From a virus (lineage: Duplodnaviria > Caudoviricetes): a stretch of DNA of 44,255 bases. The notes beneath the pieces were generated by a model. It was not told the DNA's origin and made no database searches. It was given only the letters and a program-made list of their open reading frames with translations. A program made the translations under genes and the position numbers. Shown piece by piece: positions 4,093 through 20,574 of the stretch (its first letter is position 1; each line of letters opens with the position of its first letter). The stretch is taken from the IMG/VR virus record IMGVR_UViG_3300033076_001027, positions 1 to 44,255 of that record, one strand, 5' to 3'.

Positions 4093-5160
4093 GTGGACAA
4101 CCCGACGCTAACTGACCCCGCCGCAGCCTCGTCCGCTGCGGCCACAAACGACCCGGCCCCGGTTTCGACTGGGGCTACGCAATCCTCTGCCGCGGACACG
4201 GGGACCGCCCAGGGGAACGCATCGACGCTAAACGAAGTGGCAACCGGTTCGTCTCCGGCGGCCGACAAGGACGCTAAGAAGGAGAGCTTGCTTGATGTCG
4301 TGAAAACGGCGTTTGAAGCCAAGGATCCCGCGAATTCGTCCCTCGCGAAGGCACAATCGGATCCCGCGCCGGATCAGCCTAACGATGCACAGGGCAAGGA
4401 CAGCCAGGTGCAGAAGGATGGCCCCGAAGCGCAGCCCGACTTGCCGTTCCACAACCACCCCCGATGGAAAGCGATGATCGCTGAACGCGAAAGCTTGAAG
4501 CCGGCGGCTGAGCAGTACGGAAAGATCACGCAGTTCATGAAGACCAACGGCCTGACCCCCCAGGAAATGGCCGAAGGCATGACTGTGATGGCACTCATGA
4601 AGACCAACCCGGCGGCCGCCTACCAGCAGCTGCAGGGCTATGTCAACAACCTGGCCCGGTTCACGGGGGATGTACTTCCCCCGGAGCTCAAGGCCAAGGT
4701 CGATGAGGGCTTGACCGATCCGGAGACCGCGAAGCGCCTCGCGCAGCTTGAGGCTGAGCGTGAGTTTTCATACGCCCGTCAGTTGGAAGAACAGCAGCGC
4801 ATCCAGGCTGAACAGGAAGCGGTCGCCCGACAGATGGCGGCCGATAATTCCAATCAGATGGTCGCGGCTGTCATGCGTTGGGAACAGGCCGAGCGAGCGA
4901 AGGACCCCGACTGGGCCCAGAAATACGAGATGGTGCAGGACCGGGTGAAGGCTCTCCTGGCGATGCAGCCGGCTCGCAATCCATCGGACGCAATCCAGAT
5001 CGCACAACGCGCCCTGGCCGATGTGAACGCGCGCTTGAGGCCGCTCGCAGGGAGGACGATGCCGCTCAGGACCCCAGCCAGCTCTTTGTCGTCCGTCTCA
5101 ACTACTCCGGCCCCCAGATCCCTCGCGGACCTGGTCCGGATGGGGCTGCAAGGCTCCTAA
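4093..5160 (+). CDS. Capsid scaffolding protein
   Basis: Lies between portal and MCP; disordered A/T/S/P-rich N-terminus, PFHNHPRWK motif, helical E/Q-rich body; GTG start. Confidence 0.8.
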   Translation: MDNPTLTDPAAASSAAATNDPAPVSTGATQSSAADTGTAQGNASTLNEVATGSSPAADKDAKKESLLDVVKTAFEAKDPANSSLAKAQSDPAPDQPNDAQGKDSQVQKDGPEAQPDLPFHNHPRWKAMIAERESLKPAAEQYGKITQFMKTNGLTPQEMAEGMTVMALMKTNPAAAYQQLQGYVNNLARFTGDVLPPELKAKVDEGLTDPETAKRLAQLEAEREFSYARQLEEQQRIQAEQEAVARQMAADNSNQMVAAVMRWEQAERAKDPDWAQKYEMVQDRVKALLAMQPARNPSDAIQIAQRALADVNARLRPLAGRTMPLRTPASSLSSVSTTPAPRSLADLVRMGLQGS

Positions 5161-5184
5161 TCCAAACACGAACCAGATACAACC

Positions 5185-6279
5185 ATGGCTAACTCATTCT
5201 CCACCCTCGACCACATCGTCGCCTCGGCGCTCGACTTCCATGTCAAGTCCGATGCGTTCGCCCAGACCATCCAGGAAAAGCCTCTGATCGGCGTCATGAC
5301 CAAGCGCCAGCAGACCTTCCCGGGCGGCAAGGGCGACATCTCGATCCCCCTCACCTTCCAGGACACGCTCCCGCAGATCGCCGGCTACGAAGGCGCTGAT
5401 GTCGTCTCCTACAGCAACCCGCAGAACACCCGTCGTGCTTTCTTCCCCTGGAAGGAAATCCACTCCGGCATCACTGTGACGCTGACCGAGCTCAAGATCG
5501 ATGGCATCTCCGTCACCGATTCCGTGACCGGTGAGAACACCAGCAAGCACAGCGGCCGCGACGCCACTGTCCTCACCAACATCCTCAAGGCCAAGCTCGA
5601 CGACATGACCGAAGGCTGGGCCCGCGGCTTCAACAACATGCTGTGGAAGGACGGCGCCCAGGACGCCAAGCAAGTCCCGGGTCTGTCCAACTTCATCAAG
5701 CCCGGCCTCGCCATCACCGGCGGCGCCACGGATCTGAACGCCACCGGCACCACCGGCGGCATCTCCCGCGCGACCAACGCCCTCTGGCGCAATCGCTCGG
5801 CGAAGTTCACCTACGCCTCGGGTTCGACGAACATCATCGACGGCCTCCGCTACGAGATCCGACAGCTGAAGCGCTACGGCGGCAAGCCCTCGACGATCTT
5901 CTGCGGTTCCGGCTTCCTGGAAAAGCTGGAGAAGGAAATCCACAACAAGGGTTTCTACTCCATGACCGGCTTCTCCAAGGGCACGAACACTGTCGGCATG
6001 GGCGCCACCGAGCTCCTGGGCATCGGCGAGTTCGTCTACGACCCGACCCTCGACGGCATCGCTGACTACGGCGAGTCCGGCGGCGACGGCACCCGCACCA
6101 ACTACTGCTACCTCGTGGACACCGACGCGATCCAGCTGTATGTGATGGACGGCGAAGACAAGAAGACCCACAACCCGGCCCGCCCCGAAGACAAGTATGT
6201 GATCTACAAGGCGATGACCTGGACGGGCGGCTTGATCACCAAGCAGCTCAACGGCAACGGCGTCTACAAGGCTGTCTAA
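5185..6279 (+). CDS. Major capsid protein
   Basis: 364 aa after the scaffold, strongly biased codons, followed by a strong terminator; GGISRATNALWRN segment typical of this podovirus MCP group. Confidence 0.9.
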   Translation: MANSFSTLDHIVASALDFHVKSDAFAQTIQEKPLIGVMTKRQQTFPGGKGDISIPLTFQDTLPQIAGYEGADVVSYSNPQNTRRAFFPWKEIHSGITVTLTELKIDGISVTDSVTGENTSKHSGRDATVLTNILKAKLDDMTEGWARGFNNMLWKDGAQDAKQVPGLSNFIKPGLAITGGATDLNATGTTGGISRATNALWRNRSAKFTYASGSTNIIDGLRYEIRQLKRYGGKPSTIFCGSGFLEKLEKEIHNKGFYSMTGFSKGTNTVGMGATELLGIGEFVYDPTLDGIADYGESGGDGTRTNYCYLVDTDAIQLYVMDGEDKKTHNPARPEDKYVIYKAMTWTGGLITKQLNGNGVYKAV

Positions 6280-6298
6280 GGGATAGGACATCCTACAC

Positions 6299-6329
6299 AA
6301 AGGGGGCCCGCAAGGGCCCCTTTCTTTTT
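6299..6329 (+). terminator. Rho-independent terminator after MCP
   Basis: GGGGCCC-GCAA-GGGCCCC stem followed by TTTCTTTTT. Confidence 0.9.
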
Positions 6330-6364
6330 GCCCGGACGCCAGGCCGGTGCAGATTGGTTTCACC

Positions 6365-6682
6365 ATGCAGATCGCCATCGTCGAGATCCTGCTGAACGGG
6401 AATGTTCAGCACACTGTCACCCGCCCTGTCACGGCCGCCGAAATTCTGATCCTCCGGGACATCCACGGGTCTGATTCGGTCGTCAACCCGGTAGAGCTGA
6501 CCACTGTCAAGAGATCCAACCTGGATGAGATCCAGCGCCTCAAGGACCAGTACGGCTCCAATGTCTTCTCCCGCGTCTACCCGGGCGCGGCCCCGAAGCT
6601 TCCCGAGACCTTTGCCGAAGTCGGCGTTTCCATCGAAGAACCCGAGACCAAGCCCGCCAAGAAGGCCGCGGCTGCCGAGTAA
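6365..6682 (+). CDS. Hypothetical protein in the virion module
   Basis: ATG 6365 (MQIAIVEILLNG); phage-like codon usage; between MCP and tail adaptor. Confidence 0.75.
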   Translation: MQIAIVEILLNGNVQHTVTRPVTAAEILILRDIHGSDSVVNPVELTTVKRSNLDEIQRLKDQYGSNVFSRVYPGAAPKLPETFAEVGVSIEEPETKPAKKAAAAE

Positions 6683-6685
6683 GCC

Positions 6686-7387
6686 ATGGCCCGGGGCACC
6701 AGCTTGCTGGCCCTGCGAGACCAGCTGAAGGCCGAGATCGGGGCATCTCCGAATGTCGCGATGGGGGTCAACACGATCGAGCAATTCGACAACCTGTTGC
6801 GCCGGACGCAGCAGCGCCTGTGGAACGACTTTGACTGGACCTTTGCGCTGATCGAGCGGGACGAACCGCTGATCACCGGGCAGCGGTATTACACATTCGA
6901 CCCGGACATCGACTTTGACCGGATCGTCGAGGCGCATGTCAAATACGGCAACATCTGGCACCCGATCGACTACGGCATCGGCCCGGCTCAGTACAACAAC
7001 CACGACTCCGACATGGGCGCCAAGGTCGAGCCCGTGGTCCGCTGGCGCCATTACGAGGGCAACCAATTTGAGGTCTGGCCGGTGCCCACGACGGACAACC
7101 AGTCCTTGCGGTTCAAGGCCATCAAGAAGCTGCAGCCGCTGATCGCCACGACCGATGTCGCGCTCCTGGACGACACGCTGATCGTCCTGTACGCGGCCGC
7201 GGAATACCTGGCCCGCACCAAGGCAGCTGACGCCACGGCGAAGCTCAGCCAGGCCCAGGCCCATTTCAACCGCCTCAAGGGCCTCGGGCTCAAGACGGAC
7301 CGGTTCATCTACGGCGGCGGCGTCGATCGCGCCGAGCGCCTACGCATCGTTGGCGGTCGATTCGTCCGGGATGACCGGCCCTACTGA
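6686..7387 (+). CDS. Head-tail adaptor (tail tubular protein A-like)
   Basis: 233 aa; position; DWTF near the N-terminus, FEVWPVP, LIVLYAAAEYL as in podovirus adaptors. Confidence 0.75.
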   Translation: MARGTSLLALRDQLKAEIGASPNVAMGVNTIEQFDNLLRRTQQRLWNDFDWTFALIERDEPLITGQRYYTFDPDIDFDRIVEAHVKYGNIWHPIDYGIGPAQYNNHDSDMGAKVEPVVRWRHYEGNQFEVWPVPTTDNQSLRFKAIKKLQPLIATTDVALLDDTLIVLYAAAEYLARTKAADATAKLSQAQAHFNRLKGLGLKTDRFIYGGGVDRAERLRIVGGRFVRDDRPY

Positions 7388-10300
7388 TGCCCTACATCGT
7401 CGTCGAACATTTCAAGGGTGGCCTGGACACGCGCCGGTCGGACCTTGTCTCGTCCCCTGGGACTCTGATCAAGGCCCAGAACATCCACATCACGCGCGGC
7501 GGCGAGATCGAGAAACGCAAGGCGTTTAAGACCTACTCCAGCGTTCCTGGCACATTCGGCATGGAGGCAACCGGAGATGGAGTAGTCGTGTTTGCGCCGG
7601 CTTCCTATGAATACCAGGTTTACCAGGACTGCATTGTCACAGCTGGTCATTCAGAATTTGTTAGCTTTCCAACATCAGGTCCCGCTCCAAGCGAAGACAA
7701 TCCATCGTTGAATTGGGGCCCTGCGCTTCCTGGCGATCCATCAAGCGGAGCCAGCACGAATTGCGGATTTCCTACGACATCCAATGGTGAGTATGTGTCA
7801 TTTCCTGGTGACGGACCTGGTTGGACTCTGAGGAAAAAATTTAGCTACGAAGCAAAAAATCTTGGTGATGGATACTGGCATCCGGTAAGAACATTCAGAA
7901 CCTATTACACGATCGTAAATGGCGTGATTGTTCAAAAGCTGGTCCACCCGGACGGCTATCAGCTGACCGGGATCGTCAGCTCGACTGTCTACGGCGGCAA
8001 GGCTTTCGCGATCGCCAAGTTCAGCAACGGCGATGTCTTGCCGTTCCTGGACGGGACGCTGATCAGCGCGTTCTTTGACGGCAAGGTCCGCAACACGATG
8101 GGCAACCTGGATGGGTTCGCCAACCACATGCGCATGCTGATCCAGGCCACGATCGACGAGGCCAAAGCCAAGTTTGCTTCCAACCCGGATTGGAACGACC
8201 CGATCAAGGATTATTCGGTTTCCAACTCCGGCCCGGTCTTGACCATCACCGGACCCAACGGCGTCAAGTACGCGACCTCAAACAACAACGGGTCGTCCGA
8301 GCTCTCTCCGATCACGATCAGCTCCAATGTCGCCCAGGAGTCCACGACCCCGGTCGGCAACAAGGGGGCCTACGGCGGGTTCACCATCCTGTCCGGATCT
8401 GACGGCAGCGCGCTGATGCAGATCAGCTTCAGTGGTACATTCAACCGCCCCGACCTGTTGAATTACGGAGGCCATCCGACCCCGTTCCCTGGCATCAGCG
8501 GGGTCTATGTGAAGGCCTCCGGGCCGACGACCGGTGACGGCGTCGATTGCCTCCTGTATTCGCCCCCTGGAGGCACCTCCTGGGTCAAATACGACACGAT
8601 CTCCCGGAACGATGTCGCCGGCGCCCAGGACCCGAACCAGCGCCTTCTGTACGCCCTGGCGACCATCATCAACGCCGCCTCGGAAACGACCCACATCCGG
8701 GCCGAATACCAGTGGGCTGGTTGGTACAAGGGGGGCTGGGACAAGGCCAACCTCAACATCATCACGGCCCCGGAGGTCGCCGCGTCGTTCCACAAGACCT
8801 ATGTGCAGATCGAATTCGACTCAGATCCGACCCCGTACGCCGGTACGATCTGGGAGCTGATCGACACGACGACCATCGTCCCCAGCCCGTACAATTCGGG
8901 CCGGTACATCGCCAAGGCCATGGGCTACACCTACGCGGCCAATTCCACCGGCGGTGGCATCACCTGGACACCGACCCTGGAGCGCGACACCTTTGTCGGC
9001 CGGGACAATTGCATCTATTCCGTCAAGGTCGGGACCACGGAGCTGATCAGCAATCCGGTGTATTACTACGAAAGCACCGACGATGTAGCCCGGCGCGTCG
9101 TCGAGGAGATCAACGCCAATACAGACCATGGGCTGACCCACCATTACACGGCTGAAAGGTCCGGCTCAAAGGTGACGATCCATGCTCTGGCGTCCACCGG
9201 TTCGTCGGAAAACGGCAAGGAGGTGTTCGCCTACACGCGCGGAGATGTCGTCGTGTACGGCCGGTTCAACATGCAAGGAGGGTCCGATGGCACGCCGGCC
9301 CTGCCTAAGATCACCGAATTCACTTTTGGAGGCACCTTTACCGAGGACAAACAGGCCTGGATCCTGGTGACTGATCCGAACCGGCCCAACCAGCCTTACA
9401 AATTTGGGGCAACGCGCGTGACCGGCAAGAAGCCGGCGTTTTGTTTCACCTACAAGGGCAAGATGTATGTGGGCATCGGATCTGCCATCTATTTCTCGGC
9501 GCTGAACGACGCCGGCAAGTGGGACCTTTACGACACCGGTTCCGGGTTCATCGACATGGCGAACAATTTCGGGGGCCGCGAGGATGTCACCGGAGCCGGC
9601 GTCTACCAGAACACTGTCGCCGTATTCACCGAGCGAAATTGCCAGCTGTGGTTCCTGGACCCCGATCCGAACCTCAATTCGCAACACCAGGTCCTGGACA
9701 ACACCGGCTGCATCGCCCCGGATTCCGTGATCTCCGTCGGATCTATCGACCTGTTCTACCTGTCCTACAACGGCGTCCGGTCGCTGAAAGCGCGCGACAA
9801 CACCGACGCGGCCTACGCCAATGACATCGGATCACCGATTGACGACATCATCGTCAAGCACCTGGACACCTTGTCTGCCGACACCCGCTACGCAGCCAAG
9901 GCCATCATCGAGCCCCAGGACGGCCGATACTGGATTGCGGTCGGCGGCCGGCTGTTCGTCCTGTCGTCCTTCATGGGCAGCGGGATCTCGGCCTGGACCG
10001 AGTATGTGACCGGCTTCCCGGTCACGGACATGATCGTCCGAAAGAACCGGGTCTATGTGCGATCCGGCGACACTGTCTACCTGTACGGCGGCCTCAGCGG
10101 CGTCGAATACGACGACAGCCATGTCGATGTCGAGCTGCCGTACCTTGACGCCAACAAGCCTGGCACCTTCAAGTCGGTCAACGGGGTGGACATCACTTGC
10201 GAGGGCGAATGGCTGCTCAGCCTTGGATTCGATTACACCAACCCAACCGCCAAGGACGAGATCGCGACATTTACCAGGCCGTCGTTTGCGCTGGGCAAGA

Positions 10301-10425
10301 TCCCGGCGACCGGCATCGGAACCCATGTTGGCGTCAAGTTCACCAGCGATTTCGACGGCTACTGCAAGATCGCAAACCTCCTTGTCCATTACGACGACCT
10401 TCACTCCAAACACGAAGCCGGATAA
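7387..10425 (+). CDS. Tail nozzle (tail tubular protein B / P22 gp10-like) with large inserted domains
   Basis: N-terminus FKGGLDTR...NIHITRGGEIEKRK; beta-propeller-like C-terminal half (IYFSALND, NTGCIAPDSV, LFYLSYNGVRSL, IGSPID). Confidence 0.75.
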   Translation: MPYIVVEHFKGGLDTRRSDLVSSPGTLIKAQNIHITRGGEIEKRKAFKTYSSVPGTFGMEATGDGVVVFAPASYEYQVYQDCIVTAGHSEFVSFPTSGPAPSEDNPSLNWGPALPGDPSSGASTNCGFPTTSNGEYVSFPGDGPGWTLRKKFSYEAKNLGDGYWHPVRTFRTYYTIVNGVIVQKLVHPDGYQLTGIVSSTVYGGKAFAIAKFSNGDVLPFLDGTLISAFFDGKVRNTMGNLDGFANHMRMLIQATIDEAKAKFASNPDWNDPIKDYSVSNSGPVLTITGPNGVKYATSNNNGSSELSPITISSNVAQESTTPVGNKGAYGGFTILSGSDGSALMQISFSGTFNRPDLLNYGGHPTPFPGISGVYVKASGPTTGDGVDCLLYSPPGGTSWVKYDTISRNDVAGAQDPNQRLLYALATIINAASETTHIRAEYQWAGWYKGGWDKANLNIITAPEVAASFHKTYVQIEFDSDPTPYAGTIWELIDTTTIVPSPYNSGRYIAKAMGYTYAANSTGGGITWTPTLERDTFVGRDNCIYSVKVGTTELISNPVYYYESTDDVARRVVEEINANTDHGLTHHYTAERSGSKVTIHALASTGSSENGKEVFAYTRGDVVVYGRFNMQGGSDGTPALPKITEFTFGGTFTEDKQAWILVTDPNRPNQPYKFGATRVTGKKPAFCFTYKGKMYVGIGSAIYFSALNDAGKWDLYDTGSGFIDMANNFGGREDVTGAGVYQNTVAVFTERNCQLWFLDPDPNLNSQHQVLDNTGCIAPDSVISVGSIDLFYLSYNGVRSLKARDNTDAAYANDIGSPIDDIIVKHLDTLSADTRYAAKAIIEPQDGRYWIAVGGRLFVLSSFMGSGISAWTEYVTGFPVTDMIVRKNRVYVRSGDTVYLYGGLSGVEYDDSHVDVELPYLDANKPGTFKSVNGVDITCEGEWLLSLGFDYTNPTAKDEIATFTRPSFALGKIPATGIGTHVGVKFTSDFDGYCKIANLLVHYDDLHSKHEAG

Positions 10426-10428
10426 ACC

Positions 10429-10743
10429 ATGTGCATCCTAAGCCAAAAAAGCCCAGATAGGCCGACCCCTCACGACCAGCCACTGTATTCGACCACAGGT
10501 GCCGTTCCTCCAACACGATCTCTGACCAGGCCGACCATTGTTGGTGCAGGATCTGGCGGTGGAGCGGTGGTGAATGTCATGACTCCTGCCGCGCAGCAAT
10601 ACGCCACCGACAAGATCACCAGCATCACATCGCCACGGCAGTCGCCGGCTGCGCCCCCGTTTAATCCGATCCCGGCTACCGGAGGCACGACGACGGCCGC
10701 CAAGAAATCGACCGATCAAGACGCCCAGAAGATCGTAAAATGA
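10429..10743 (+). CDS. Small low-complexity protein starting Met-Cys; probable internal virion protein
   Basis: Fills the gap between nozzle and GNAT with tight spacing and ATGA overlap; P/T/A-rich. Confidence 0.55.
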   Translation: MCILSQKSPDRPTPHDQPLYSTTGAVPPTRSLTRPTIVGAGSGGGAVVNVMTPAAQQYATDKITSITSPRQSPAAPPFNPIPATGGTTTAAKKSTDQDAQKIVK

Positions 10744-11219
10744 TCCTGGCCGACCTAACAATCGATGCGGTCAAGCATGTTGCGGTCAACATGCGTGCCA
10801 GGGATCGCGAGGAGATCTTTGCGACCAGGTGGGATGATGACCCAGAGATGGTGGCGAAGACCCTGGTGTCATTGAATCCTGCAGGGTTCGTCGTCAAGGC
10901 CGACGACGGAGAGCCCGTCAGCGTGTTCGGCGTCTACGAGATGTGGCCTGGAGTTTTCTCCGTCTTTATGTTCGCCACCGACAGATGGGAGGAGGTCGCG
11001 TTCAGCATGACCAAGTTCGTCATGCGCGAGCTGATCCCGTCGATCATGTCCGGAAACTTTGTACGGGCCGAGTGCAAGACTCTGTCCACGCACGATCAAG
11101 CTCATCGCTGGCTTGAAACGCTTGGTGCCTACAAAGAGTCGGAGCACCCATGCTACGGAAAGAACGGCGAGACATTCTTCACTTACTGCTGGACCAAACA
11201 ACCGACGAAAACAAACTGA
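10740..11219 (+). CDS. GNAT-fold protein (T7 gp13-like)
   Basis: NMRARDREEIFA motif, HDQAHRWLETLGA...YGKNGETF; canonical position after the nozzle. Confidence 0.78.
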   Translation: MILADLTIDAVKHVAVNMRARDREEIFATRWDDDPEMVAKTLVSLNPAGFVVKADDGEPVSVFGVYEMWPGVFSVFMFATDRWEEVAFSMTKFVMRELIPSIMSGNFVRAECKTLSTHDQAHRWLETLGAYKESEHPCYGKNGETFFTYCWTKQPTKTN

Positions 11220-11224
11220 CCATC

Positions 11225-11845
11225 ATGTGTTTCACAAGCTCAGGGCCCGACTACGGAGGCATGGCTCGCGCCGATGAGGAAGCACGCCAGGCGCGGATCA
11301 AGGAAGGCATGGGGAAAATCGACTCCACCTTCAAGCAGTTCAACCCGGACTTCTACGATCGCCGCAAACAGGCGGTGCTTGATACGACGATGCCTCAGCT
11401 CAACGACCAATTCCAGAAGACCAAGGAGCAGCTGCAGTACAACCTGGCGCGATCCGGTCTCACGGACTCCAGCGTGCGCGCAGCCAACGAAGGCGAGATG
11501 CAGCGACAGATGGATGTGAACAAGGCGGCCGTCGCCGGCCAGGCCCAGGACTACGCGAACCAGGCTCGTCAGCAGATCGAACAGAATCGATCCGAGCTGG
11601 TCGGCCAGCTCAACGCCACCGGCGATGCCCAGGCTGCGGCCCAGGGCGCGCTGTCCAGGGCTTCAATTGCAGCCGGACAACCTGGCGTCAGTCCGCTTGG
11701 AATGATGTTCCAGAACACGACCGGTCTCCTGGGCCAGGCCAGCCAGGCCGGCGCCTACGATCGACGAGCCCCAGGCCTCCAGGCTTTTGGCATGCCCATC
11801 AGAACCATCGGCGTTTCTCGCGACAAAGAAAGGACTGTAGGCTAA
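11225..11845 (+). CDS. Ejection / internal virion protein starting Met-Cys
   Basis: ATG 11225 (MCFTSSG); Q/A-rich helical; LARSGLTDSS motif. Confidence 0.7.
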   Translation: MCFTSSGPDYGGMARADEEARQARIKEGMGKIDSTFKQFNPDFYDRRKQAVLDTTMPQLNDQFQKTKEQLQYNLARSGLTDSSVRAANEGEMQRQMDVNKAAVAGQAQDYANQARQQIEQNRSELVGQLNATGDAQAAAQGALSRASIAAGQPGVSPLGMMFQNTTGLLGQASQAGAYDRRAPGLQAFGMPIRTIGVSRDKERTVG

Positions 11846-11846
11846 C

Positions 11847-12728
11847 ATGTGCGACGCAGCAACAGCATCCTATGTAGCCATGGCTATGGGCACCGCTGCC
11901 ACCTACGAGGGGCAGCAACAGGCCAAGAGCGCCATGAGCAAGGCCCAGCAAGCCGAGAACGAGCGCCAAAAGAAGATGCGCAGCGAGGCTGACACCTTGT
12001 TCAATGAATCCCTGGGCACCGAAGGCCAGGACAGCACGATCAAGTCCGAAGACAAGGCCGTCAAAGACCGCCAGGACGCTGCCGCTGCAGCCCAGGCCCA
12101 AGGCACCGGGATTGATGTCGGATCGGCCTACGGCAACAAGTCCCAGGTGGTTTCAGATGAATCCGGAGTCCGAAAGGCCGCCGGCAAAGCGTCGTCCGGC
12201 ATGGAGGCTGCCGCCAAAGCCAAGCTCGCCGGGTTTGGCGACGCAGCCCAGCTGAACGCCATCAAGAACGCGCGCATGCGCCTGGGCCAGGGAATCATCG
12301 CCGGCAACATGGCAGGATCTGCCGCGGCCCTTACTCCAGAGCTTGATTACGCCGGTCACGCCGGCGACAGCATGAAGAACCTTGGTGCCGGCCTTCAGAC
12401 CTTGAGCATGCTGACCGGCATGTACGCGGCATCCGGCGCGGGAGCCACGACCGCAGAGGAGCTTGCCAAGTCCCAGATCGGCGAGGCCGGCCAGCTGACC
12501 GGCACCGATGGAAGCATGCTTTTCCCGTCAGAAGGTGGCGGTTTTACCGAGCTGAATCCAACGACCGGCGAATACGGAATCTACAAGGGTGACTTCACCA
12601 ATTATGTGCCCAAGGAACACCTGGCCTGGGCCAACAAGCCGGCCTTGTTCAAGCCGTTCAGCTCGGCGCCCCAGGGCTATGTGGCCCCGGCCAGCTGGTT
12701 CAGCGCGCCAACCCCTAAGATCCGATAA
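11847..12728 (+). CDS. Ejection protein (T7 gp14-like)
   Basis: MCD start, then a hydrophobic A/G segment and Q-rich coiled coil. Confidence 0.7.
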   Translation: MCDAATASYVAMAMGTAATYEGQQQAKSAMSKAQQAENERQKKMRSEADTLFNESLGTEGQDSTIKSEDKAVKDRQDAAAAAQAQGTGIDVGSAYGNKSQVVSDESGVRKAAGKASSGMEAAAKAKLAGFGDAAQLNAIKNARMRLGQGIIAGNMAGSAAALTPELDYAGHAGDSMKNLGAGLQTLSMLTGMYAASGAGATTAEELAKSQIGEAGQLTGTDGSMLFPSEGGGFTELNPTTGEYGIYKGDFTNYVPKEHLAWANKPALFKPFSSAPQGYVAPASWFSAPTPKIR

Positions 12729-12730
12729 CG

Positions 12731-13858
12731 ATGCCCGACTATTCCGGATACGCGCAGCGCCCGCAGCAGGACCCGAACCTGGCAGCCTGGGCTCAGATTG
12801 GCGGCAACATCGCCAACATCTTTGGCCTCGATCCGGCCAAGGCCGCCGAGGCCCGCCGTGGCCTCCAGCAGGAGGACTACAACGAGCAGCGCAACCAGGC
12901 CTACATCCGGCAGCAGCTAGCCAACAAGCGGATCGGCGAGCTGTTTTCAAAGATCGACCCGACGACCGGGGAGTTCAGCGACCCGTCGGATTTCAAGGAG
13001 TACGCCGGCCTTGTCGGCGAATTGGGCGGCAGCTTGAATCCGCATTACGGCACCGGCTATTCTGCCGGCCAGGAACAGATCAGAATCCGGGCCGAAGACA
13101 GAAGGAACACCGAAGCCCAAAAAAGGGCCGAAGCAGCCAACGCTCAAAGGATTGCTGAGGAACAGAAGAAAGCGGTGGCAGCCTACCAAGAACGACTAAG
13201 GGTCAAGGCTGATCGAAATTCGATCGTCAAAGGTCGTAGGTATGACCCGGATGCGGCCATCAACAAATTTGATTACGGAATCAAAACAGGATTCCCTGGT
13301 GGATGGTTTGAGGAATCTCCGGAAACAAAGGCCCAGAAGGATCTACCGGAGGAAAAACGGAAATACAAGATGACCGCTGCGTTTGCGGATTGGCTCAACA
13401 AAAACGGCTATTCATCCACCAGCATCGATCCGGCGTTGTTCAATGGATCCGGCAATTCTTCCGGAGCTTTGCAGGACACCGCCAATCAGCTTGGATTGAT
13501 GCTTGGTCAGCCCGGAAACCATCCCCAGGTCCTCCAATTGGCGAAACAGGTCATGATGAATCAGTTCGCCGACCAGGACAAACGATTCAATTCGGATGTC
13601 ATCATTTCTGACGACAAGCAATCGCTTGAGTCATCGATAAACGGCATCGTCAATTCCTTGAACCAGGGCAAGGACCCTGGCGTCAGATCTGTGATTGTCA
13701 GAAAGATGGTCAGAAATCCATCAACCGGCATCCTTGAACATGTCCATGGAGAGTACTCCCTGGACGAATTGCTTGATCGCGGCCCGGATGGTAAATGGAT
13801 CTTCAATCCGACCAAGTCCCTAGGAGAGAATCATCCCGACATCTTCTTCAAACGATAA
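12731..13858 (+). CDS. Putative ejection / internal virion protein
   Basis: 375 aa helical ORF in the ejection cluster; IGGNIANIFG amphipathic segment. Confidence 0.6.
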   Translation: MPDYSGYAQRPQQDPNLAAWAQIGGNIANIFGLDPAKAAEARRGLQQEDYNEQRNQAYIRQQLANKRIGELFSKIDPTTGEFSDPSDFKEYAGLVGELGGSLNPHYGTGYSAGQEQIRIRAEDRRNTEAQKRAEAANAQRIAEEQKKAVAAYQERLRVKADRNSIVKGRRYDPDAAINKFDYGIKTGFPGGWFEESPETKAQKDLPEEKRKYKMTAAFADWLNKNGYSSTSIDPALFNGSGNSSGALQDTANQLGLMLGQPGNHPQVLQLAKQVMMNQFADQDKRFNSDVIISDDKQSLESSINGIVNSLNQGKDPGVRSVIVRKMVRNPSTGILEHVHGEYSLDELLDRGPDGKWIFNPTKSLGENHPDIFFKR

Positions 13859-16413
13859 TGGGCGCGTTCAACGATTGGCTAAAAACCCAGCAATCGCAAC
13901 CAGCCGTCCCCAGCCAGGCCGAGATTGACGCGAAAGCCAAGCAGGATGAATTGCCAGAGCAAGCTCCGGATTTCCCGTCGCTAAAAAAGACGGCCCGGCT
14001 GTCCTACAATCTTCCGAACATCGCAAAACAAGGCGAGCAGATCCTGGTGCCGTCTACCGAGGAAGGGTTCGACTATGTGATGCAGAATTACGGGGAGACA
14101 GGGTTTGAGGCATCTCCCGATGCCTCGGGCGTCAATGTTTTCAAGATCAGAGATCAGATCATCAAGTCAGACCCGTTCTTTCTCAAGGGTGGATCGCCCA
14201 AGATGCTTCTTCCGGCAGCGTCGGGTTTCACCAAAACGACGCCAGACCAATTCAAGAAAGGTCAGCGATCGTCCATGCAGCAGGATTTCTATGTGGTTCC
14301 GCAGGGGAATGTCCCTGGTGATTACTGGAAATTCAACCCAAACGACATCGAGAAATTCAGATCAGATCCATCGATTCTAAGGGCCGCAAAATACATTCAT
14401 TCAATCGACCCTAACGCCGGTAATTTTGACGACGATCCGGATCATTACATCAAGCAAGCGATCCAGGTGATGAGGTCGAATGTCATCGACCAACATTACG
14501 GGAAAGGGATCCCTACGGCATTTTCATCGCAATCAACCAATAAACAGGAAGACAAAGTAATCCCGGATAGGCTGCCTGTTGGCGTGCCTGGCGTTCCGAT
14601 GCTTCAATTTAATGCGCCGATTGCCCCGACTCTCGTAGGATCCGGGGCTGCAGCCATGAACAGCGCCTATGACGCGATGATTGCCAACAGCATGTTCGAC
14701 TTTGGTCAGGCCATGATGGGTCAGTACGACGACAAACAGCTTGGAGACCTGGTAGCCGGGGCTTCCGGTCCGATGAAACAGCCTCGCGCCGGAGGATTCC
14801 TTGGGGGCCAGGAGGAACGGCGCAGCAGAAACCCGATTGCAGCCGGGTTGTTTGACAGAGCCAATGCGATCAACGGGATCATCGCATCAAAGTATTCAGC
14901 TGATCAGCTCGCAGCCATGAGCCCAGAGCAGCGCCGCCAGGTTGGCTACGATGCCGCCAAGGAACATCTCAGATCCGAAGCCACGGCCCACTTGAAAACA
15001 GCTTTTGAGCTGAACAAGGGGAAAACAGAGGGAATTTCCGGTTTTAGGACCAAGGAATTCTACGATCAAGACAACCAAACCTTGTCAAAGCTGACCCAGG
15101 CTACGGCCAGCTCCTTTGTTCCTACGGCAGCTCCGATGTTGGCGTCGATGTTTGGCAGCATCGCGGCCGGCCCGGTAGGAGGAAAGGCCGCATCGGCAGC
15201 CATGACATACAAGCTGTCAACCGACGCTGAATTCCTTGACCAAGTCACACAATGGGCTTCCGACAATGGCTTGGACATCACCCAAGACCCGGCAGATGTG
15301 ATCGATGCGATGGTCAAAATGGCCGAAGCCGACCCGGAAGGATTCTCCAGGAAGATGAAGGACATGGTTCACCATGCGCGCGTAGCTGGCGGCCTGGAAG
15401 CCGGCGTTGCTTTTGGTCTAAACGAGATCCTGGACAAGGTCCACCTCCCGGAAAAATGGTCAAAGGAAGGTTCGATCCTAAAGATCATCATGAAGACAGG
15501 CAATCCAGGTGTTGCCAGGAGGTTGCTTGTTCCAAGGGCCGTCAAGGTCCTGGAAGAAACCGGCAAAGAAGCCGTCGAAGAATACCTCACCGAAGTTTTC
15601 GTCAACATGGGCAAGAGCGCGGACAGTAAGATCCAAGCCGGCACGCCGGCCTGGGATGCCGCCAGGGATTCGATCCGGGAGATGGTTTCCTCGTACCAGG
15701 AGGACGACCCCAACGCCACGCCCGAACAGCTCCAGGCCAAAAAACAGCTGGTCCAAGGTCGAAACGACGCCGGCATGGTAGGCGCCTACATGAGCTTGAT
15801 CACGCGGTTGATCACCGGACACGGCAATCCAGATACGGCCTTGATTCAGAAAGCTAGGTCGGGTGCGGCCAAGGCCATCGCATCCAGGAGCAGCAAGCCT
15901 GTCACCGAGGAGGAAATCATCAACCAGCTGAAGACCATGGAAGGTGCCACATTCCAGCAGCTTTGGGAATTCGCCGATGAACAGCTGATGTTGGCCGGCC
16001 ATGGAACGATCGATGATTACATCGAGCAGAGACTTAGGCCGCTTACGGAGGATCAGTTTAACCAGGCGTTCCCGGATCCGTCGAATTCCAGGATCGGAGG
16101 AGATTCCACCCTGTTGCCAGGCCAGCAATCCATCGTTTCCCCGGAACCGATCACCCAGCAAGGCAATCGCCAGGAAGCGAGCGCACAGGCCCAGGAAAAA
16201 TTCCTCAAGGAGATGCAGAAGAACCGGCAATCCCTTGAGGAGGAGGCGGCCCAGTACAACCGGAACCTGGATCTGGAAATTGAAAAAGCTTACAGTGAGC
16301 TGCTGAAGGCCACTAGGTATTTGCGCCTTAATCCAGAGAACCAAGGGGCCATCAACGCCGTCAACCAGGCGCACGACAGGTACATCTCTCTTAAAAACGA
16401 AAAACGGCGCTGA
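13858..16413 (+). CDS. Large putative ejection protein
   Basis: ATG 13858 overlaps the upstream TAA; A/G-rich hydrophobic stretches (LASMFGSIAAGPVGG) and EAVEEYLTE motif. Confidence 0.65.
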   Translation: MGAFNDWLKTQQSQPAVPSQAEIDAKAKQDELPEQAPDFPSLKKTARLSYNLPNIAKQGEQILVPSTEEGFDYVMQNYGETGFEASPDASGVNVFKIRDQIIKSDPFFLKGGSPKMLLPAASGFTKTTPDQFKKGQRSSMQQDFYVVPQGNVPGDYWKFNPNDIEKFRSDPSILRAAKYIHSIDPNAGNFDDDPDHYIKQAIQVMRSNVIDQHYGKGIPTAFSSQSTNKQEDKVIPDRLPVGVPGVPMLQFNAPIAPTLVGSGAAAMNSAYDAMIANSMFDFGQAMMGQYDDKQLGDLVAGASGPMKQPRAGGFLGGQEERRSRNPIAAGLFDRANAINGIIASKYSADQLAAMSPEQRRQVGYDAAKEHLRSEATAHLKTAFELNKGKTEGISGFRTKEFYDQDNQTLSKLTQATASSFVPTAAPMLASMFGSIAAGPVGGKAASAAMTYKLSTDAEFLDQVTQWASDNGLDITQDPADVIDAMVKMAEADPEGFSRKMKDMVHHARVAGGLEAGVAFGLNEILDKVHLPEKWSKEGSILKIIMKTGNPGVARRLLVPRAVKVLEETGKEAVEEYLTEVFVNMGKSADSKIQAGTPAWDAARDSIREMVSSYQEDDPNATPEQLQAKKQLVQGRNDAGMVGAYMSLITRLITGHGNPDTALIQKARSGAAKAIASRSSKPVTEEEIINQLKTMEGATFQQLWEFADEQLMLAGHGTIDDYIEQRLRPLTEDQFNQAFPDPSNSRIGGDSTLLPGQQSIVSPEPITQQGNRQEASAQAQEKFLKEMQKNRQSLEEEAAQYNRNLDLEIEKAYSELLKATRYLRLNPENQGAINAVNQAHDRYISLKNEKRR

Positions 16414-16480
16414 TGTCCTACTAAGTGTAGAACCAAAATTCGTTGCCTACGCATCATCTCAAAAATAAAAATCTCTCAAC

Positions 16481-19400
16481 ATGGCATCCAAAGGGAATCT
16501 CAACATCAACCCGAACATCAAGCCGCAGATCCGGACGCAAACCGATCAAGGGCCGCTTTCAGGGATTGATCCCAACATCGCAGCTGGCGCGATCCAGGCC
16601 CTCCAGGATAGCGCACGCGCAAGCACCCCTAGCGCGCTTTCCGAGGCGCAGAGATCTGCAGCCGCGCTGCCGACCAGCGGCACCGACACGATTCTGAACC
16701 CGTTTGTCCGGCCCGAAGGCGTGCCGGCTGGAGCGCCGACTGATCTGTCATCTCTATTTGGGATGGGCACCGCTGGCCTGGGTCCGATCGAGCAGAGTCC
16801 GATGTCATCCCCGACCCTGGGTGCCGGCCTTCCTACCTACGACGCCGGCATGGCTCCGACCATGGCGCCGGCCGTTTCGCCCTTTGCCCAGCCCCAGGTA
16901 TCACCCCAGCTGGCGATGGGCCAGGCTCAAGGCCAGGCGATCACCGGGGCCACGACCCTGGCTGATCTTGTCTCCCGTGGCCTGGGAGGCCAGGTGCCCC
17001 AGGTTGCCCAGCCTCAGATTCCTCAGCTGGCGCCTCAGCCTTTCGGCCAGGCCATGCCCCAGGCGATGCCCCAGGCTCCCGTTGCCGCCCCCCAGATGGC
17101 TCCCCAGGCCGCTTTCCCTCAGGCCCCTGGCATCGCTCAGCCCGCAGCCCCTGCCGGCCTTGGATCTTTGTTTGCGCCTCCGGCCCCGGTCGTCCAGGCT
17201 CCGCAGCAACCCTATGGAATCCAGGCCCCAATTCAGCCCCAGGTTCAAGCGGCGAGTCAGCCCCAGCTGCCCCCTGCTCCCGTTGCCCCCTTCCAGGCCC
17301 TCGCTCCGGCAGCCCCCGCGCCGCTCCCTGCTCCAGTCGCTCCGGCTCCTGTTCAACAGGCTGCTCCGGCTCCCGCCCCGGTAGCCCAGGCTCCCGCCCC
17401 GGCTCCGGCTCCTGCCCGTCAGCAGCCCGCCCGCCGCGGTGCTCCGCTGCAAACCGATCCCAACGCCGTCAACCCGGCCGAGGACTTCCCGGAAGCCCTG
17501 GCCGCCCGCCGCGCCAATCAGCGCGCCGACGGCGACACCGGCAACGACCCTGGCCGCCCGTACACCCCGACCCCCTACGAGCGCCCGGATGAGCCGGCCC
17601 CGATCGAGCAGCCCCAGGAACAGCCGGCCGAAGCTCCGGTCGAGCCCGAGCTGGAACCGGCCATGGCTGGTTCCCCCCTTCAGAACGCGCAGCCGGCCGA
17701 ATCGGCTATTCAGAACGGCGAGCTGATGATCGCCGGCGGCAACCGCCGCTATTCCCGTGGCGGCCCGATCGGCGACAACGCCGGCGGCAAGGGCGTCCCG
17801 ACCAACCTCCTGTCCCGCGTTGGCCTCACCCGCGCCATCCTAAGCCAGTTCGTGGATCGGTCGATCGTGGGCACAATGATGGTTCCGGACCGCCCGATGG
17901 ATAACGCGGACGATGTGGCCGCCCTGGCCTACGAATACCTCCGCAAGCAGCCCCAGGAAAACTTCATGGCTGTCATCCTGGACGGACAGGGCCGTCCGAT
18001 CCAGATCCTGCGCCACACCCTTGGTTCCATCAGCTCGACCAATTTCGTACCCCATGTGATTGCTGGCGTCGCCGCCAGCACGCGCGGCGCCCGGACTGTG
18101 TACATGGTCCACAACCACCCGTCCACCACCACCCGGTTCTCCACGGCCGACATGCTGGCTGCCCAAAGCCTGTCCAAGTCGATCGAGGCGATCGGTCTCC
18201 GTTTCGGCGGCTCACTGGTCGTGACCGACGGCGACGCGCACGAGGGCAACATGACGCCCAAGTACATCTTCCACCCGGGCGGCGAGCTGGTCGAACACAC
18301 GCCGGCCGCGATGTCCAACAATGCCGAAGGCGATGCTCAGACCGATGCTCGCGCCGTTCATCCTGTTGTCGTCTTTGATGATCGTCCTGGCTCGGATACG
18401 ACCACCGAGCTGATGGTCGTGGAACGCACCTTTGAGATCCGCAAGAACGCCCTGTTCCCCCGCATCTCCGATGGCAAGTCAGCCGTGGAACAGATCCCGC
18501 CGCTTCTCCGGAACCTTCCTGGCGTTGCTTTGATGGACAATGCCGGCCGGTTGGTCGGCGTCGTCCAGATGAGCATCGGCGAGATGCGGAATGTGTCTTC
18601 CGCTGGCAGCATTATTTATCCGTCCCAAGGCCAGGATCGCGATTACATCGGCAGCGAAGACGAGCGCGTCAACCCGCCCATGGACAACCGCGTCTACAAG
18701 CGGAAGGACGGTTTGCCCAAGGACGCCCAGGCCGGTTCCTGGAACAACCCTCTCGCCATGCTCATGGCAGCCCTTGAGCGATCCAATGCCGAGCGCGTGA
18801 TCATCAGCGTCGGCCCGAATGAGTTCGGTCAATCCGGCAACGATGTCAGATCTGATGCCGTCCGCAATCTCCAGAAGGCCATCATGCGCGTCGGTGGCAA
18901 GAAGGTCGAAGTTCTGGATGTCATCAACAACAAGCAGAGCTTCCCGAACCAGGTGCTTTCCGCTCACATGTACGGGAATTACCCAAGCCCGCATGGCCCC
19001 GAAACCAAGAACATGGGTGGCCGCCTCAAGTCCGGCTACCGCCTTGGCTTCAACGAGGAAGGCGCCTCCTACGGCGACCAGGGCCAGGAAGACCAGGCCC
19101 CGATCGAACGCGAAGCTCCCAAGTCCCTTGGCGATGTCGTCAGCCAGGGCATGGAGGGCGAGGGGGTTTCTGAAACCAACCCCGAAGATCCCAATGCCGG
19201 GGCTGAATTCGCCCGCCAGGAGCGCGAAGCCGGTGCCCGCGTCAACCCGCCCGGGATCACCACCCCCAGCGGCCTGGACAACGCCCAGCCGGCCGAGCCG
19301 GTCATCAAGAAGACCCGCAAGCCCCGCGCCAAGAAGGTGCCTGGCGTCAATGTCTCTGCGTTCCCCAAGCTGGACGCCACCCCGGGCGTGTTCGGCCGCC

Positions 19401-20509
19401 TTTCCGGCGAGCAGATGAAGCAATTCGGTCTGTCCGACGCCATGCTGGATCAGTTCATCGAGCACTCCACCTACGGCCAGGTCATGTCCGGCGTCTCCGA
19501 GGTCAAGACCGACGACGACGCAGCCCACATCGTGGCCGCCATGCGCAAGCGCCCCCAGGAACAGATCGTGCTGCTAATCACCGACAAGAACGGCAAGCCC
19601 CTCCAGATTGCCGTCCACCAGCTGGGCGGTCCTGCCTCGGCCGGCTTCAATCCTGGCATCTTGATCGGCACCGCCGCCAGCACCCCTGGCGCCGCCAAGG
19701 TCTGGTTCATCCACAACCACCCGTCCGGCAAGAGCTCCCTGTCCCCGGCCGACCTCAGCGCCGGCAACGCAGTCGAGAACCTGTGCAAGGCCGCCAATCT
19801 CAGGTACATGTCCACCATGGCTGTTGCCGGCTCCAAGTACGCGGTCATGAACAACAGCGGATCGATTCTCGCCAACCAGCAGATCCCCCCGCATCCGCGC
19901 AAGTTCAGCATCCCGCTGACCGAGCGCATCTTCTCCTACCGCGTCAGCCAGAACACCCCGGCCTTTGCGGACCCTGCCGTCGCCGGGCCCGAGATGAAGC
20001 GCATCTTTGGCGAAAGCCAGCCTGGCATCATCCTGGCCGACAACTCCAACCGCCCGGTCGCGGCGATCCCCCTGGACGGCGATGTCATGCAAGCCATGCG
20101 CGCGACCCTGCCCGGCGAAAACCCGAACAAGCAGACCGGTTTCGCCAAGTACGCAGCCGGCGTCGAGCGTTCAGGCGCGGTCAACATGTTCATCTACACG
20201 GCTGACTTGCCGATGGATCTCGCGATCAAGGTCATCGAGAACATGAGCAAGGTCGCCAACGCGACCAAGATCACGGCCCTGGACGCGCTGAATTCCAAGG
20301 AAGTCACTTTGAGCCGCCACATCATCGGCTACGCCAGCGACTTCAAGGAGCCCGGCTCCAGCTACAACGCCGGAGAGAACCCCCAGGAAAACGCCGCCGA
20401 AGGTGGCGTCGAGAACGCTGCCGAGACCGAAGCCGAGGCGCCAAGCTCGATCGGCGACATCGTCAAGCAGGGGCTCTCTGAGCCCCAAAAAAAAAAGACG
20501 AGGCGGTAG
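16481..20509 (+). CDS. Polyvalent ejection protein, part 1: P/A/Q-rich N-terminus plus two RadC-like JAB modules
   Basis: Two complete JAB metal sites: PQE...HNHPSTTTRFSTAD (HNHPS 18110-18124) and PQE...HNHPSGKSSLSPAD (HNHPS 19712-19726). Ends at an A10 run. Confidence 0.85.
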   Translation: MASKGNLNINPNIKPQIRTQTDQGPLSGIDPNIAAGAIQALQDSARASTPSALSEAQRSAAALPTSGTDTILNPFVRPEGVPAGAPTDLSSLFGMGTAGLGPIEQSPMSSPTLGAGLPTYDAGMAPTMAPAVSPFAQPQVSPQLAMGQAQGQAITGATTLADLVSRGLGGQVPQVAQPQIPQLAPQPFGQAMPQAMPQAPVAAPQMAPQAAFPQAPGIAQPAAPAGLGSLFAPPAPVVQAPQQPYGIQAPIQPQVQAASQPQLPPAPVAPFQALAPAAPAPLPAPVAPAPVQQAAPAPAPVAQAPAPAPAPARQQPARRGAPLQTDPNAVNPAEDFPEALAARRANQRADGDTGNDPGRPYTPTPYERPDEPAPIEQPQEQPAEAPVEPELEPAMAGSPLQNAQPAESAIQNGELMIAGGNRRYSRGGPIGDNAGGKGVPTNLLSRVGLTRAILSQFVDRSIVGTMMVPDRPMDNADDVAALAYEYLRKQPQENFMAVILDGQGRPIQILRHTLGSISSTNFVPHVIAGVAASTRGARTVYMVHNHPSTTTRFSTADMLAAQSLSKSIEAIGLRFGGSLVVTDGDAHEGNMTPKYIFHPGGELVEHTPAAMSNNAEGDAQTDARAVHPVVVFDDRPGSDTTTELMVVERTFEIRKNALFPRISDGKSAVEQIPPLLRNLPGVALMDNAGRLVGVVQMSIGEMRNVSSAGSIIYPSQGQDRDYIGSEDERVNPPMDNRVYKRKDGLPKDAQAGSWNNPLAMLMAALERSNAERVIISVGPNEFGQSGNDVRSDAVRNLQKAIMRVGGKKVEVLDVINNKQSFPNQVLSAHMYGNYPSPHGPETKNMGGRLKSGYRLGFNEEGASYGDQGQEDQAPIEREAPKSLGDVVSQGMEGEGVSETNPEDPNAGAEFARQEREAGARVNPPGITTPSGLDNAQPAEPVIKKTRKPRAKKVPGVNVSAFPKLDATPGVFGRLSGEQMKQFGLSDAMLDQFIEHSTYGQVMSGVSEVKTDDDAAHIVAAMRKRPQEQIVLLITDKNGKPLQIAVHQLGGPASAGFNPGILIGTAASTPGAAKVWFIHNHPSGKSSLSPADLSAGNAVENLCKAANLRYMSTMAVAGSKYAVMNNSGSILANQQIPPHPRKFSIPLTERIFSYRVSQNTPAFADPAVAGPEMKRIFGESQPGIILADNSNRPVAAIPLDGDVMQAMRATLPGENPNKQTGFAKYAAGVERSGAVNMFIYTADLPMDLAIKVIENMSKVANATKITALDALNSKEVTLSRHIIGYASDFKEPGSSYNAGENPQENAAEGGVENAAETEAEAPSSIGDIVKQGLSEPQKKKTRR
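20487..20497 (+). other. Putative -1 frameshift or slippage site (A10, includes A_AAA_AAG)
   Basis: Zero frame CAA AAA AAA AAG ACG AGG CGG TAG. The -1 frame is closed by TGA at 20479-20481 and open from 20482 through ATG 20575 to 25683. Confidence 0.65.
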
Positions 20510-20574
20510 CCGAGGGTGATACCCGCTATGAGGCCAGCCTGGTAGACCAATACAAAGAGGTCGTTCGCCAGGGC

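Follow-up and report, generated by a model that had tools for sequence, protein, structure and literature searches.

How podophages choose the proteins that they inject is largely an open question, and the locus described here raises it for one giant protein. The window, by which we mean the whole stretch analysed (IMG/VR record IMGVR_UViG_3300033076_001027; Duplodnaviria, Caudoviricetes), is a complete phage record of 44,255 bases with 62% G+C, from an uncultured short-tailed phage. A preliminary description proposed that the C-terminal peptide of the phage's head scaffold recurs three times in a giant polyvalent protein, as a tag by which this cargo would be packaged into the procapsid. In our view the motif is real and selected and its use as a loading tag is plausible, in a narrower form than first proposed: it belongs to one lineage and is not linked to the JAB modules of the protein. 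The features on which this view rests are as follows.

Positions 4093-5160, plus strand: head scaffold (inferred), 355 amino acids (aa), assigned from its place between the portal and capsid genes, an AlphaFold model and an Atlas lead.
Positions 4276-4314, plus strand: N-terminal motif copy of the scaffold, KKESLLDVVKTAF (SLLDVVKTAF), near residue 65; from a regular expression run on the homologues and the AlphaFold model.
Positions 5110-5148, plus strand: C-terminal motif of the scaffold, APRSLADLVRMGL, three residues (QGS) before the stop; the tail runs to 5160.
Positions 16481-20509, plus strand: giant polyvalent protein in its short frame (1,342 aa), with a P/Q/A-rich N-terminal region and two JAB (RadC-like) modules.
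Positions 16733-16771, plus strand: possible weak fourth copy, APTDLSSLFGMGT; BLOSUM score 26, the fourth best in the proteome; aligned in relatives.
Positions 16946-16984, plus strand: cargo copy 1, GATTLADLVSRGL, noted earlier as ATTLADLVSRGL at 16949-16984; from the proteome scan and the alignment of relatives.
Positions 17900-18235, plus strand: JAB/RadC domain 1 (residues 474-585); PF04002, with HNHPS at residue 544.
Positions 19115-19153, plus strand: cargo copy 2, APKSLGDVVSQGM, preceded by an F-x-E-E-G-A-S-Y linker motif.
Positions 19502-19837, plus strand: JAB/RadC domain 2; its approximate limits were set by offset from HNHPS (residue 1078).
Positions 20438-20476, plus strand: cargo copy 3, APSSIGDIVKQGL, a paralogue of copy 2, 10 residues before the end of the short frame.

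The four peptides on which the proposal was built were all confirmed at 5110-5160, 16949-16984, 19115-19153 and 20438-20476. A six-frame scan with the pattern [ST][LIVM].D[LVIM][VIL]..G, which was written after the peptides had been seen, returned exactly these four matches. When the scaffold 13-mer was scored against 13,730 aa of the proteome, the top scores were 40, 39, 29 and 26, all within the open reading frame (ORF) at 16481-20509, and the next was 19; only one other of 4,434 control 13-mers, a Pro/Ala low-complexity peptide, equalled the third-best score within one protein. We also built a profile from scaffold copies alone, with 120 scaffold-like ORFs set aside first and a cut-off score of 13. 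It gave three matches at or above the cut-off in the 1,342-aa cargo (19.0, 15.6 and 14.0) and seven in the other proteins of related phage loci (492,468 aa), one of which resembles the N-terminal copy of a partial scaffold and another of which is a giant cargo. The background rate is thus about one per 70,000 aa, compared with three per 1,342 aa in the cargo. Each cargo copy is identical to the scaffold tail of the same genome at 7 of 13 residues, and third codon positions agree in 2/7, 3/7 and 3/7 of these identical residues in the three copies. As the third positions have drifted, the likeness has been kept at the protein level, and recent copying of DNA from the scaffold gene is not supported. 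Judged by these scans, the motif is common to scaffold and cargo far beyond chance, and within this genome it was found on one cargo protein only.

The fourth candidate copy, APTDLSSLFGMGT, did not reach significance when scored by the scaffold profile (4.4-7.6 in relatives). The echo YKEVVRQGM, which the preliminary description had pointed out just after the slip site, is present and scores 4.3 with a shuffle p of 0.80, as expected of background. Single high-scoring matches to the motif were noted at two other loci, at residue 99 of a 362-aa ejection-module protein (L122, 9457-10542) and at residue 11, near the start of a 695-aa portal-sized protein (L196, 6822-8906).

The cargo alignment comprises 11 close genomes, and counts were taken over the rows that cover each site. 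Copy 1 is in place in 10/10 covering rows, copy 2 in 11/11 and copy 3 in 9/9, with indel-rich linkers surrounding these positionally kept copies. When compared with the second subgroup of these genomes, copy 1 has an identity of 0.74, against 0.27 and 0.41 in its flanks. In the same subgroup copy 2 is degenerate (xG[IV]EGIVRxGL), scoring 6.0 in three rows and 15.1 in one, while copy 3 is strong (19-22) and ends in AA. The changes seen in the cargo copies (S/T, D/E, GL to AA) match changes among the scaffold copies, and the shared consensus is P-x-[ST]-[LI]-x-[DE]-[VIL]-V-x-x-[GA]-[LMA]. Conservation in relatives, which had been named as a test of the proposal, was therefore found both for the scaffold end, family-wide, and for the cargo copies, in position in the 11 close genomes.

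The copies are at residues 156, 879 and 1320, so that all are internal and none is N-terminal. PF04002 matches the 1,342-aa frame in two stretches (E value 5e-29), and copies 2 and 3 lie within one duplicated unit, the alignment of which runs through the motif at 26% identity; as judged from this alignment, the two copies come from one duplication. The statement that all of the copies lie in disordered linkers has its basis in P/Q/A-rich composition and indel-rich flanks, and the linkers are better called putatively disordered. We note that insertions in the 11-genome alignment cluster directly behind copy 2. Within 16481-25683 a linker motif, [FVM]-x-E-[EPGT]-x-x-x-Y, stands five times at the close or the opening of a module, at residues of about 857 and 1288 and at residues 9, 96 and 305 of the second frame described below.

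The assignment of the scaffold itself requires comment. The 355-aa protein has no Pfam, PHROG or NCBIfam match and no PDB fold match at E <= 0.001 by Foldseek, which likewise gave no match to P22 gp8. Its nearest named Atlas cluster is 'Scaffolding protein family', with a score of 0.90, in which PF09306 is found on 13% of members. The AlphaFold model has a disordered N-terminal third, a helical core (residues 123-320), a linker and a terminal helix (344-354). From its position between the portal and capsid genes, this predicted architecture and the weak Atlas lead, we infer that the protein is the scaffold.

The tail motif is present in 51/51 upstream ORFs recovered from 52 capsid loci. By regular expression, the C-terminal copy was found in 116/120 scaffold homologues and the N-terminal copy in 109/120; the preliminary description had listed the latter, SLLDVVKTAF, as a weaker echo, and it proves to be real and conserved. 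The tail columns over the 120 homologues are occupied by P in 114, S/T in 118, L in 112, D/E in 118, V/I in 119 and G/A in 113, and position 349 is Arg in 80. Both copies form isolated helices in the AlphaFold model (66-75 and 344-354). The cultured phage Mae-Yong1326-1 has both scaffold copies, and RHph_N65 has the N-terminal copy plus a weak tail. Because both copies are conserved in homologues and in cultured phages, the scaffold is a two-motif protein across the family. One homologue, P0086, is named by its source as a protein of a Verrucomicrobiota metagenome-assembled genome.

If the cargo copies imitate the scaffold's end, they might be expected to share its partner, and the candidate considered here is encoded directly downstream of the scaffold.

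Positions 5185-6279, plus strand: major capsid protein, HK97 fold; NF033394 capsid_maj_Podo, 251 bits against a cut-off of 80.

Foldseek matches this protein to the capsids of cyanophage A-1(L), Mic1 and SU10, and no solved relative was found by sequence profile. An ESMFold2 complex was predicted for the capsid protein (95-row alignment) with a 37-residue stretch around copy 2 (eight rows). The score was 0.52 (runs 0.52, 0.58 and 0.36), against 0.01 for the best of three controls, with a contact agreement of at least 82% and a partner pLDDT (predicted local distance difference test) of at least 54, and it fell to 0.01 when the capsid protein was replaced. The mark applied is reached by 116/157 solved complexes and 2/215 mismatches; at scores of 0.60 or lower it is reached by only 18/157 solved complexes and by both mismatches, and the pass is for this reason a weak one. 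Copy 2 is thus weakly predicted to bind the major capsid protein, and the structure-prediction check that had been suggested for each peptide came out weakly positive for copy 2.

On balance we lean towards the interpretation that the cargo copies mimic the coat-binding end of the scaffold and load the cargo into the procapsid as a lineage-specific tag. The terminal helix of the scaffold would be the coat-binding element, as in P22 and 80alpha, and the cargo copies would bind where the scaffold does, on the capsid protein's inner face, so that the cargo is built into the procapsid and later injected. Several weak copies would provide avidity, while the far more numerous scaffolds would still drive assembly. 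The conservation and the weakly predicted capsid binding speak for this part of the preliminary description; its link to JAB modules fails, generality is not supported and co-variation with the scaffold tail was not shown, as set out below.

A number of observations weigh against the mimic interpretation. Giant genes, whole or partial, were scanned in 22 genomes outside the tag-bearing clade, and a clear linker copy was found in one (G023). Scaffolds of the outside genomes keep the tail wherever it could be read and their giant proteins are mostly without a copy. None of the 25 sister-clade giants (P0135-P0159) has a linker copy. The 12 tag-bearing genomes fall together on a single side of a branch of the capsid tree (97/95), on which the tag labels were assigned from gene counts; gain of the tag is therefore one event. 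Copies 2 and 3 are one duplicated unit. In the second subgroup copy 3 has become ...VVxxAA and the scaffold keeps ...RxG[LF], so that the two do not co-vary at the residue level; copies 1 and 2 of this subgroup have low scores (6.0-15.1). The Arg found at position 349 in 80/120 scaffolds is missing from most cargo copies, and copy 2 lies in a stretch of net charge -3; coat binding in P22 is reported to rely on R293 and K296 (PMC12005531), and recruitment of the P22 ejection proteins is ascribed to scaffold, not to coat (PMC8402733).

The wider survey includes some less clear cases. The lone copy in G023, EPQTLAEVVQKAA, resembles that genome's own scaffold tail, QPKTLLDVVRTAA. Matches in G027 and G037 are marginal (p of about 0.04), and that in G029 is strong but lies inside an apparent peptidase helix; P0135 and P0136 match the profile at the same peptidase-like helix in the folded part. 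Among 40 database homologues, copy 3 is present in 9 of the 11 closest, the other two of which appear to start downstream of it, and four further rows gave no significant match. The cultured phages Mae-Yong1326-1 and RHph_N65 have no cargo copy. With one clear copy in 22 outside genomes, the tag cannot be regarded as general in the giant proteins of the family. Nor does one tag close each JAB module, as had been supposed: copy 1 precedes the first JAB domain by about 300 aa, and copies 2 and 3 close both modules because they are inside one duplicated unit. Two JAB-like modules without any tag occur in G002 and G009, and G023 is tagged and gave no JAB match; from these patterns we conclude that the tag is not tied to JAB modules. 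Co-variation of scaffold tail and cargo motif was not shown, one clade and one outlier being too few independent events.

Other features of the giant proteins outside the clade are recorded here. In G022 (L086) residues of about 253-293 contain two tandem TLADL[TI]AAEQ peptides in a P/A/Q-rich linker, placed like copy 1; with the profile they fall below significance. Sister-clade giants (P0135-P0159, L081, L082) often begin with a short acidic-hydrophobic peptide, e.g. MAKDINEILAMG. Homologous giants at L085 (G021) and L057 (G024) have other modules, with SNF2-like (4,428 aa) and GNAT-like matches below the Pfam cut-off.

The most serious alternative, which we consider possible though less probable, is that the motif acts as an assembly handle that engages the scaffold itself or the portal and not the capsid shell site, with the cargo riding on the scaffold lattice. 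The second, N-terminal copy in the scaffold is unexpected from the single C-terminal hook of P22 and would suit such a role, as would the lack, in most cargo copies, of the basic residue of the scaffold tail. P22 gp7, gp16 and gp20 need scaffold for entry into the procapsid (PMC8402733), and a proposed model docks them on scaffold columns (PMC12005531). The C-terminal ends of scaffolds in P22 and 80alpha, however, bind coat (PMC12005531, PMC6893505), and the weak ESMFold2 pass was obtained with the capsid protein and dropped to 0.01 on its replacement.

A generic N-capped amphipathic helix for some unrelated partner, used in self-association or on a host protein after injection and like the scaffold tail only by convergence, seems unlikely to us. 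S/T-x-x-D/E capping and L-x-x-V-V spacing make up a common helix pattern, the profile also picks up the peptidase-like helix in the folded parts of P0135, P0136 and G029, and the lack of co-variation with the scaffold would be explained; against this stand the enrichment over background given above, the 7/13 identity of every copy to its own scaffold tail and the weakly predicted capsid binding. It is more improbable still that the motif is a proteolytic processing site common to scaffold and cargo. The long form of the cargo has an HExxxH zincin-like motif, such peptidases have been proposed to process polyvalent proteins (PMC5512222), and module swaps cluster directly behind copies 2 and 3; a cut three residues from the scaffold end, however, would take off next to nothing, a scan of 28 proteins identified no prohead protease, and E-x-G-x-x-Y and R/K-R-F-S mark the module joints more regularly. 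Least of all do we credit chance resemblance or a neutral relic. Its occurrence in one lineage only and the origin of copies 2 and 3 by duplication would fit such an account, but the copies persisted as the duplicated modules drifted apart to 26% identity and many indels arose in the flanks, and both the 13-mer and the profile scans speak against chance.

The short frame ends just behind copy 3, and this raises the question of which products carry the tag.

Positions 20487-20496, plus strand: A10 run, a likely site of slippage or frameshifting; no other A/T run of at least 7 occurs in the window.
Positions 20482-25683, plus strand: second (-1) frame, which continues the giant to about 3,067 aa and has a conserved C-terminal domain.

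The A10 run starts four codons after copy 3 (0-5 codons across loci), and AAA is the minor Lys codon in the window (100 against 412). An A10 or A11 run is present in 9/9 covering loci (the window plus L054-L057, L061-L063 and L073), as A10 in four, with split frames, and as A11 in five, in which the first and second parts are encoded in one frame; the default frame thus differs between genomes. Both other frames stop within seven codons in 8/8 loci with downstream sequence, of which two share an identical context. A10 was found in contigs of five studies, and one contig, at a depth of 3.9, has an extra A; the window itself may derive from one of the sequencing runs behind these contigs. As A10 recurs in contigs of five studies, and is seen in three relatives with A11 in five more, we reject a sequencing or assembly error as the source of the frame split. 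No stimulatory RNA structure was found after the run (z = -0.5).

Bacterial transcription is known to slip on runs of nine A/T, and A_AAA_AAG is the dnaX shift site (PMC5009743). The run in the window is of the same sequence type as the dnaX site, with nearby stops in both other frames, but differs in that it lies in a putative virion cargo gene, its default frame varies and no stimulatory structure was found. The likely predicted products are a short JAB protein, whose end lies 10 residues beyond the motif, and a long form of about 3,067 aa; slippage or -1 frameshifting would yield both, and both would be tagged. Genomic phase variation of the DNA at the A run may also occur.

The second frame has an HExxxH zincin-like motif near 21703 and three R/K-R-F-S linker motifs. 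R/K-R/K-F/Y-S motifs lie at module joints (residues 317, 597 and 926 of the second frame; 422 and 1140 of the first) and are possible processing sites for the HExxxH peptidase-like domain. The ATG of the second frame (20575-20620) precedes an acidic-hydrophobic peptide similar to that which begins sister-clade giants, possibly an alternative loading signal or an internal start. Contigs from several studies match the window to 20519 and then continue in a different module, which marks a cassette-swap point just 3' of the slip site.

A further feature of the clade may bear on why a tag would be needed.

Positions 13795-16413, plus strand: 872-aa protein with a Gly/Ala-rich hydrophobic segment; from gene counts and hydropathy.

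This gene is found as a separate gene only in the tag-bearing clade, where the interval from the 293-aa protein to the giant contains one additional gene. Most other giants have a similar Gly/Ala-rich segment near their start, whereas those of the clade start P/Q/A-rich. By gene count and composition, on which the split rests, the 872-aa protein is the likely substitute for the hydrophobic N-terminal part with which the giant begins elsewhere; a hidden Markov model search of it against the N-termini of other giants gave nothing below an E value of 0.3, apart from one unrelated internal match at 0.035. As the extra gene has the Gly/Ala segment and the clade's giants start P/Q/A-rich, this suggests that the giant gave up an N-terminus of the ejection type and acquired a different way into the head, and the lineage would need the tag since its giant no longer begins with the Gly/Ala-rich ejection segment. 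G023 has both features and blurs the correlate.

Taken further, and offered tentatively, the lineage may have detached a giant injected arsenal protein from the ejection core and re-addressed it to the head by copying the coat-binding helix of the scaffold into its linkers. The slippery A run would then make a short isoform that is built like the scaffold, with one copy in a disordered N-terminal part and one at the C-terminus, and a 12-residue helix would serve as a natural position-independent tag for more than 300 kDa.

Several known systems resemble the one proposed. In the sources cited, the capsid targeting sequence (CTS) of T4 internal proteins and the 30 N-terminal residues of P1 DarB are sufficient to load reporters (PMC3012670, PMC9024508). 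There, as would be the case here, a short peptide on variable injected cargo directs entry into the head, and DarB, too, is a giant injected protein. Each of those cargoes has one signal, at the N-terminus, in contrast to the internal, repeated copies of the scaffold tail in the window; the cargo peptide is conserved in the 11 genomes, as in a capsid targeting sequence, but does not lie at the cargo N-terminus. The passages on T4 and P1 do not describe the signals as copies of a scaffold C-terminus; P1 has no identified scaffold. SaPI1 CpmB carries the RIIK end of the 80alpha scaffold and occupies the same capsid site by cryo-electron microscopy (PMC6893505). It likewise is a second protein that shares the terminal motif of a scaffold, at 7/13 identical residues per copy in the present case. 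CpmB serves a satellite as a rival scaffold and alters capsid size, whereas we describe a phage's own cargo of 1,300-3,000 aa, with three internal copies and same-site binding that is weakly predicted. By analogy, loading through a scaffold-mimic tag would work somewhat more probably than otherwise in the manner of a capsid targeting sequence, with the same-site trick of the CpmB type.

In P22, the end of the scaffold gp8 binds coat and fused C-terminal fragments load cargo into shells (PMC12005531, PMC9962691), the fragments reported being 141-303 and 238-303 (PMC9962691). The P22 element is a basic helix-turn-helix with essential Arg/Lys; here an Arg is present in 80/120 scaffolds and absent from most cargo copies, and the scaffold end in the window is a single predicted helix of about 11 residues. 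The natural ejection proteins of P22 are thought to bind scaffold by their N-terminal parts (PMC8402733), and the arrangement in the window would be a natural version of the engineered one. The giant protein also compares well with phage-type polyvalent proteins (Iyer et al., 2017, PMC5512222; phi24B gp47, 10.64898/2026.04.10.717836), which are described as giant, multidomain, RadC/JAB- and zincin-like proteins of portal-terminase phages, predicted to be packaged or, for phi24B gp47, found in virions. It has PF04002 twice, an HExxxH motif, module swaps between relatives and virion-gene neighbours, and no match to an LPD or MuF family. The word 'scaffold' does not occur in the main texts of these two polyvalent-protein sources, nor 'frameshift' in that of Iyer et al. 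In the open-access literature searched (titles, starts of abstracts and passages, without supplements), no natural cargo was described that carries, internally, copies of the tail of its own scaffold.

The procapsid binding sites of the P22 ejection proteins are given as not known (PMC8402733), and how the giant ejection protein of phi24B is organised is among the open questions listed in the paper on that phage (10.64898/2026.04.10.717836). As exact residues can be named on cargo, scaffold and capsid, the question becomes testable in the present system. If the mimic interpretation is true, nature uses the scaffold-fusion trick of P22-shell engineering with a much shorter tag, and head cargo could be found by searching a phage's proteome for likenesses to the tail of the scaffold that the phage itself encodes. 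Since the signal is lineage-limited, it provides no general account of how giant ejection proteins are loaded.

The gene order of the window is consistent with this setting. From the left it encodes the terminase, a P22-like portal, the 355-aa scaffold candidate and the major capsid protein.

Positions 1906-4041, plus strand: portal protein (P22-like); PF16510, E value 4e-12.

After the capsid gene come an SU10-type adaptor, a 1,012-aa protein at the tail-tube position and a gp13-like internal protein, then proteins of 231, 293, 375 and 872 aa and the two long overlapping frames (16481-20509 and 20482-25683). The giant cargo gene thus sits in the ejection module, 3' of the tail-tube gene and of the gp13-like internal protein. 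The three genome-bin matches to the window are phage-sized contigs from distant relatives.

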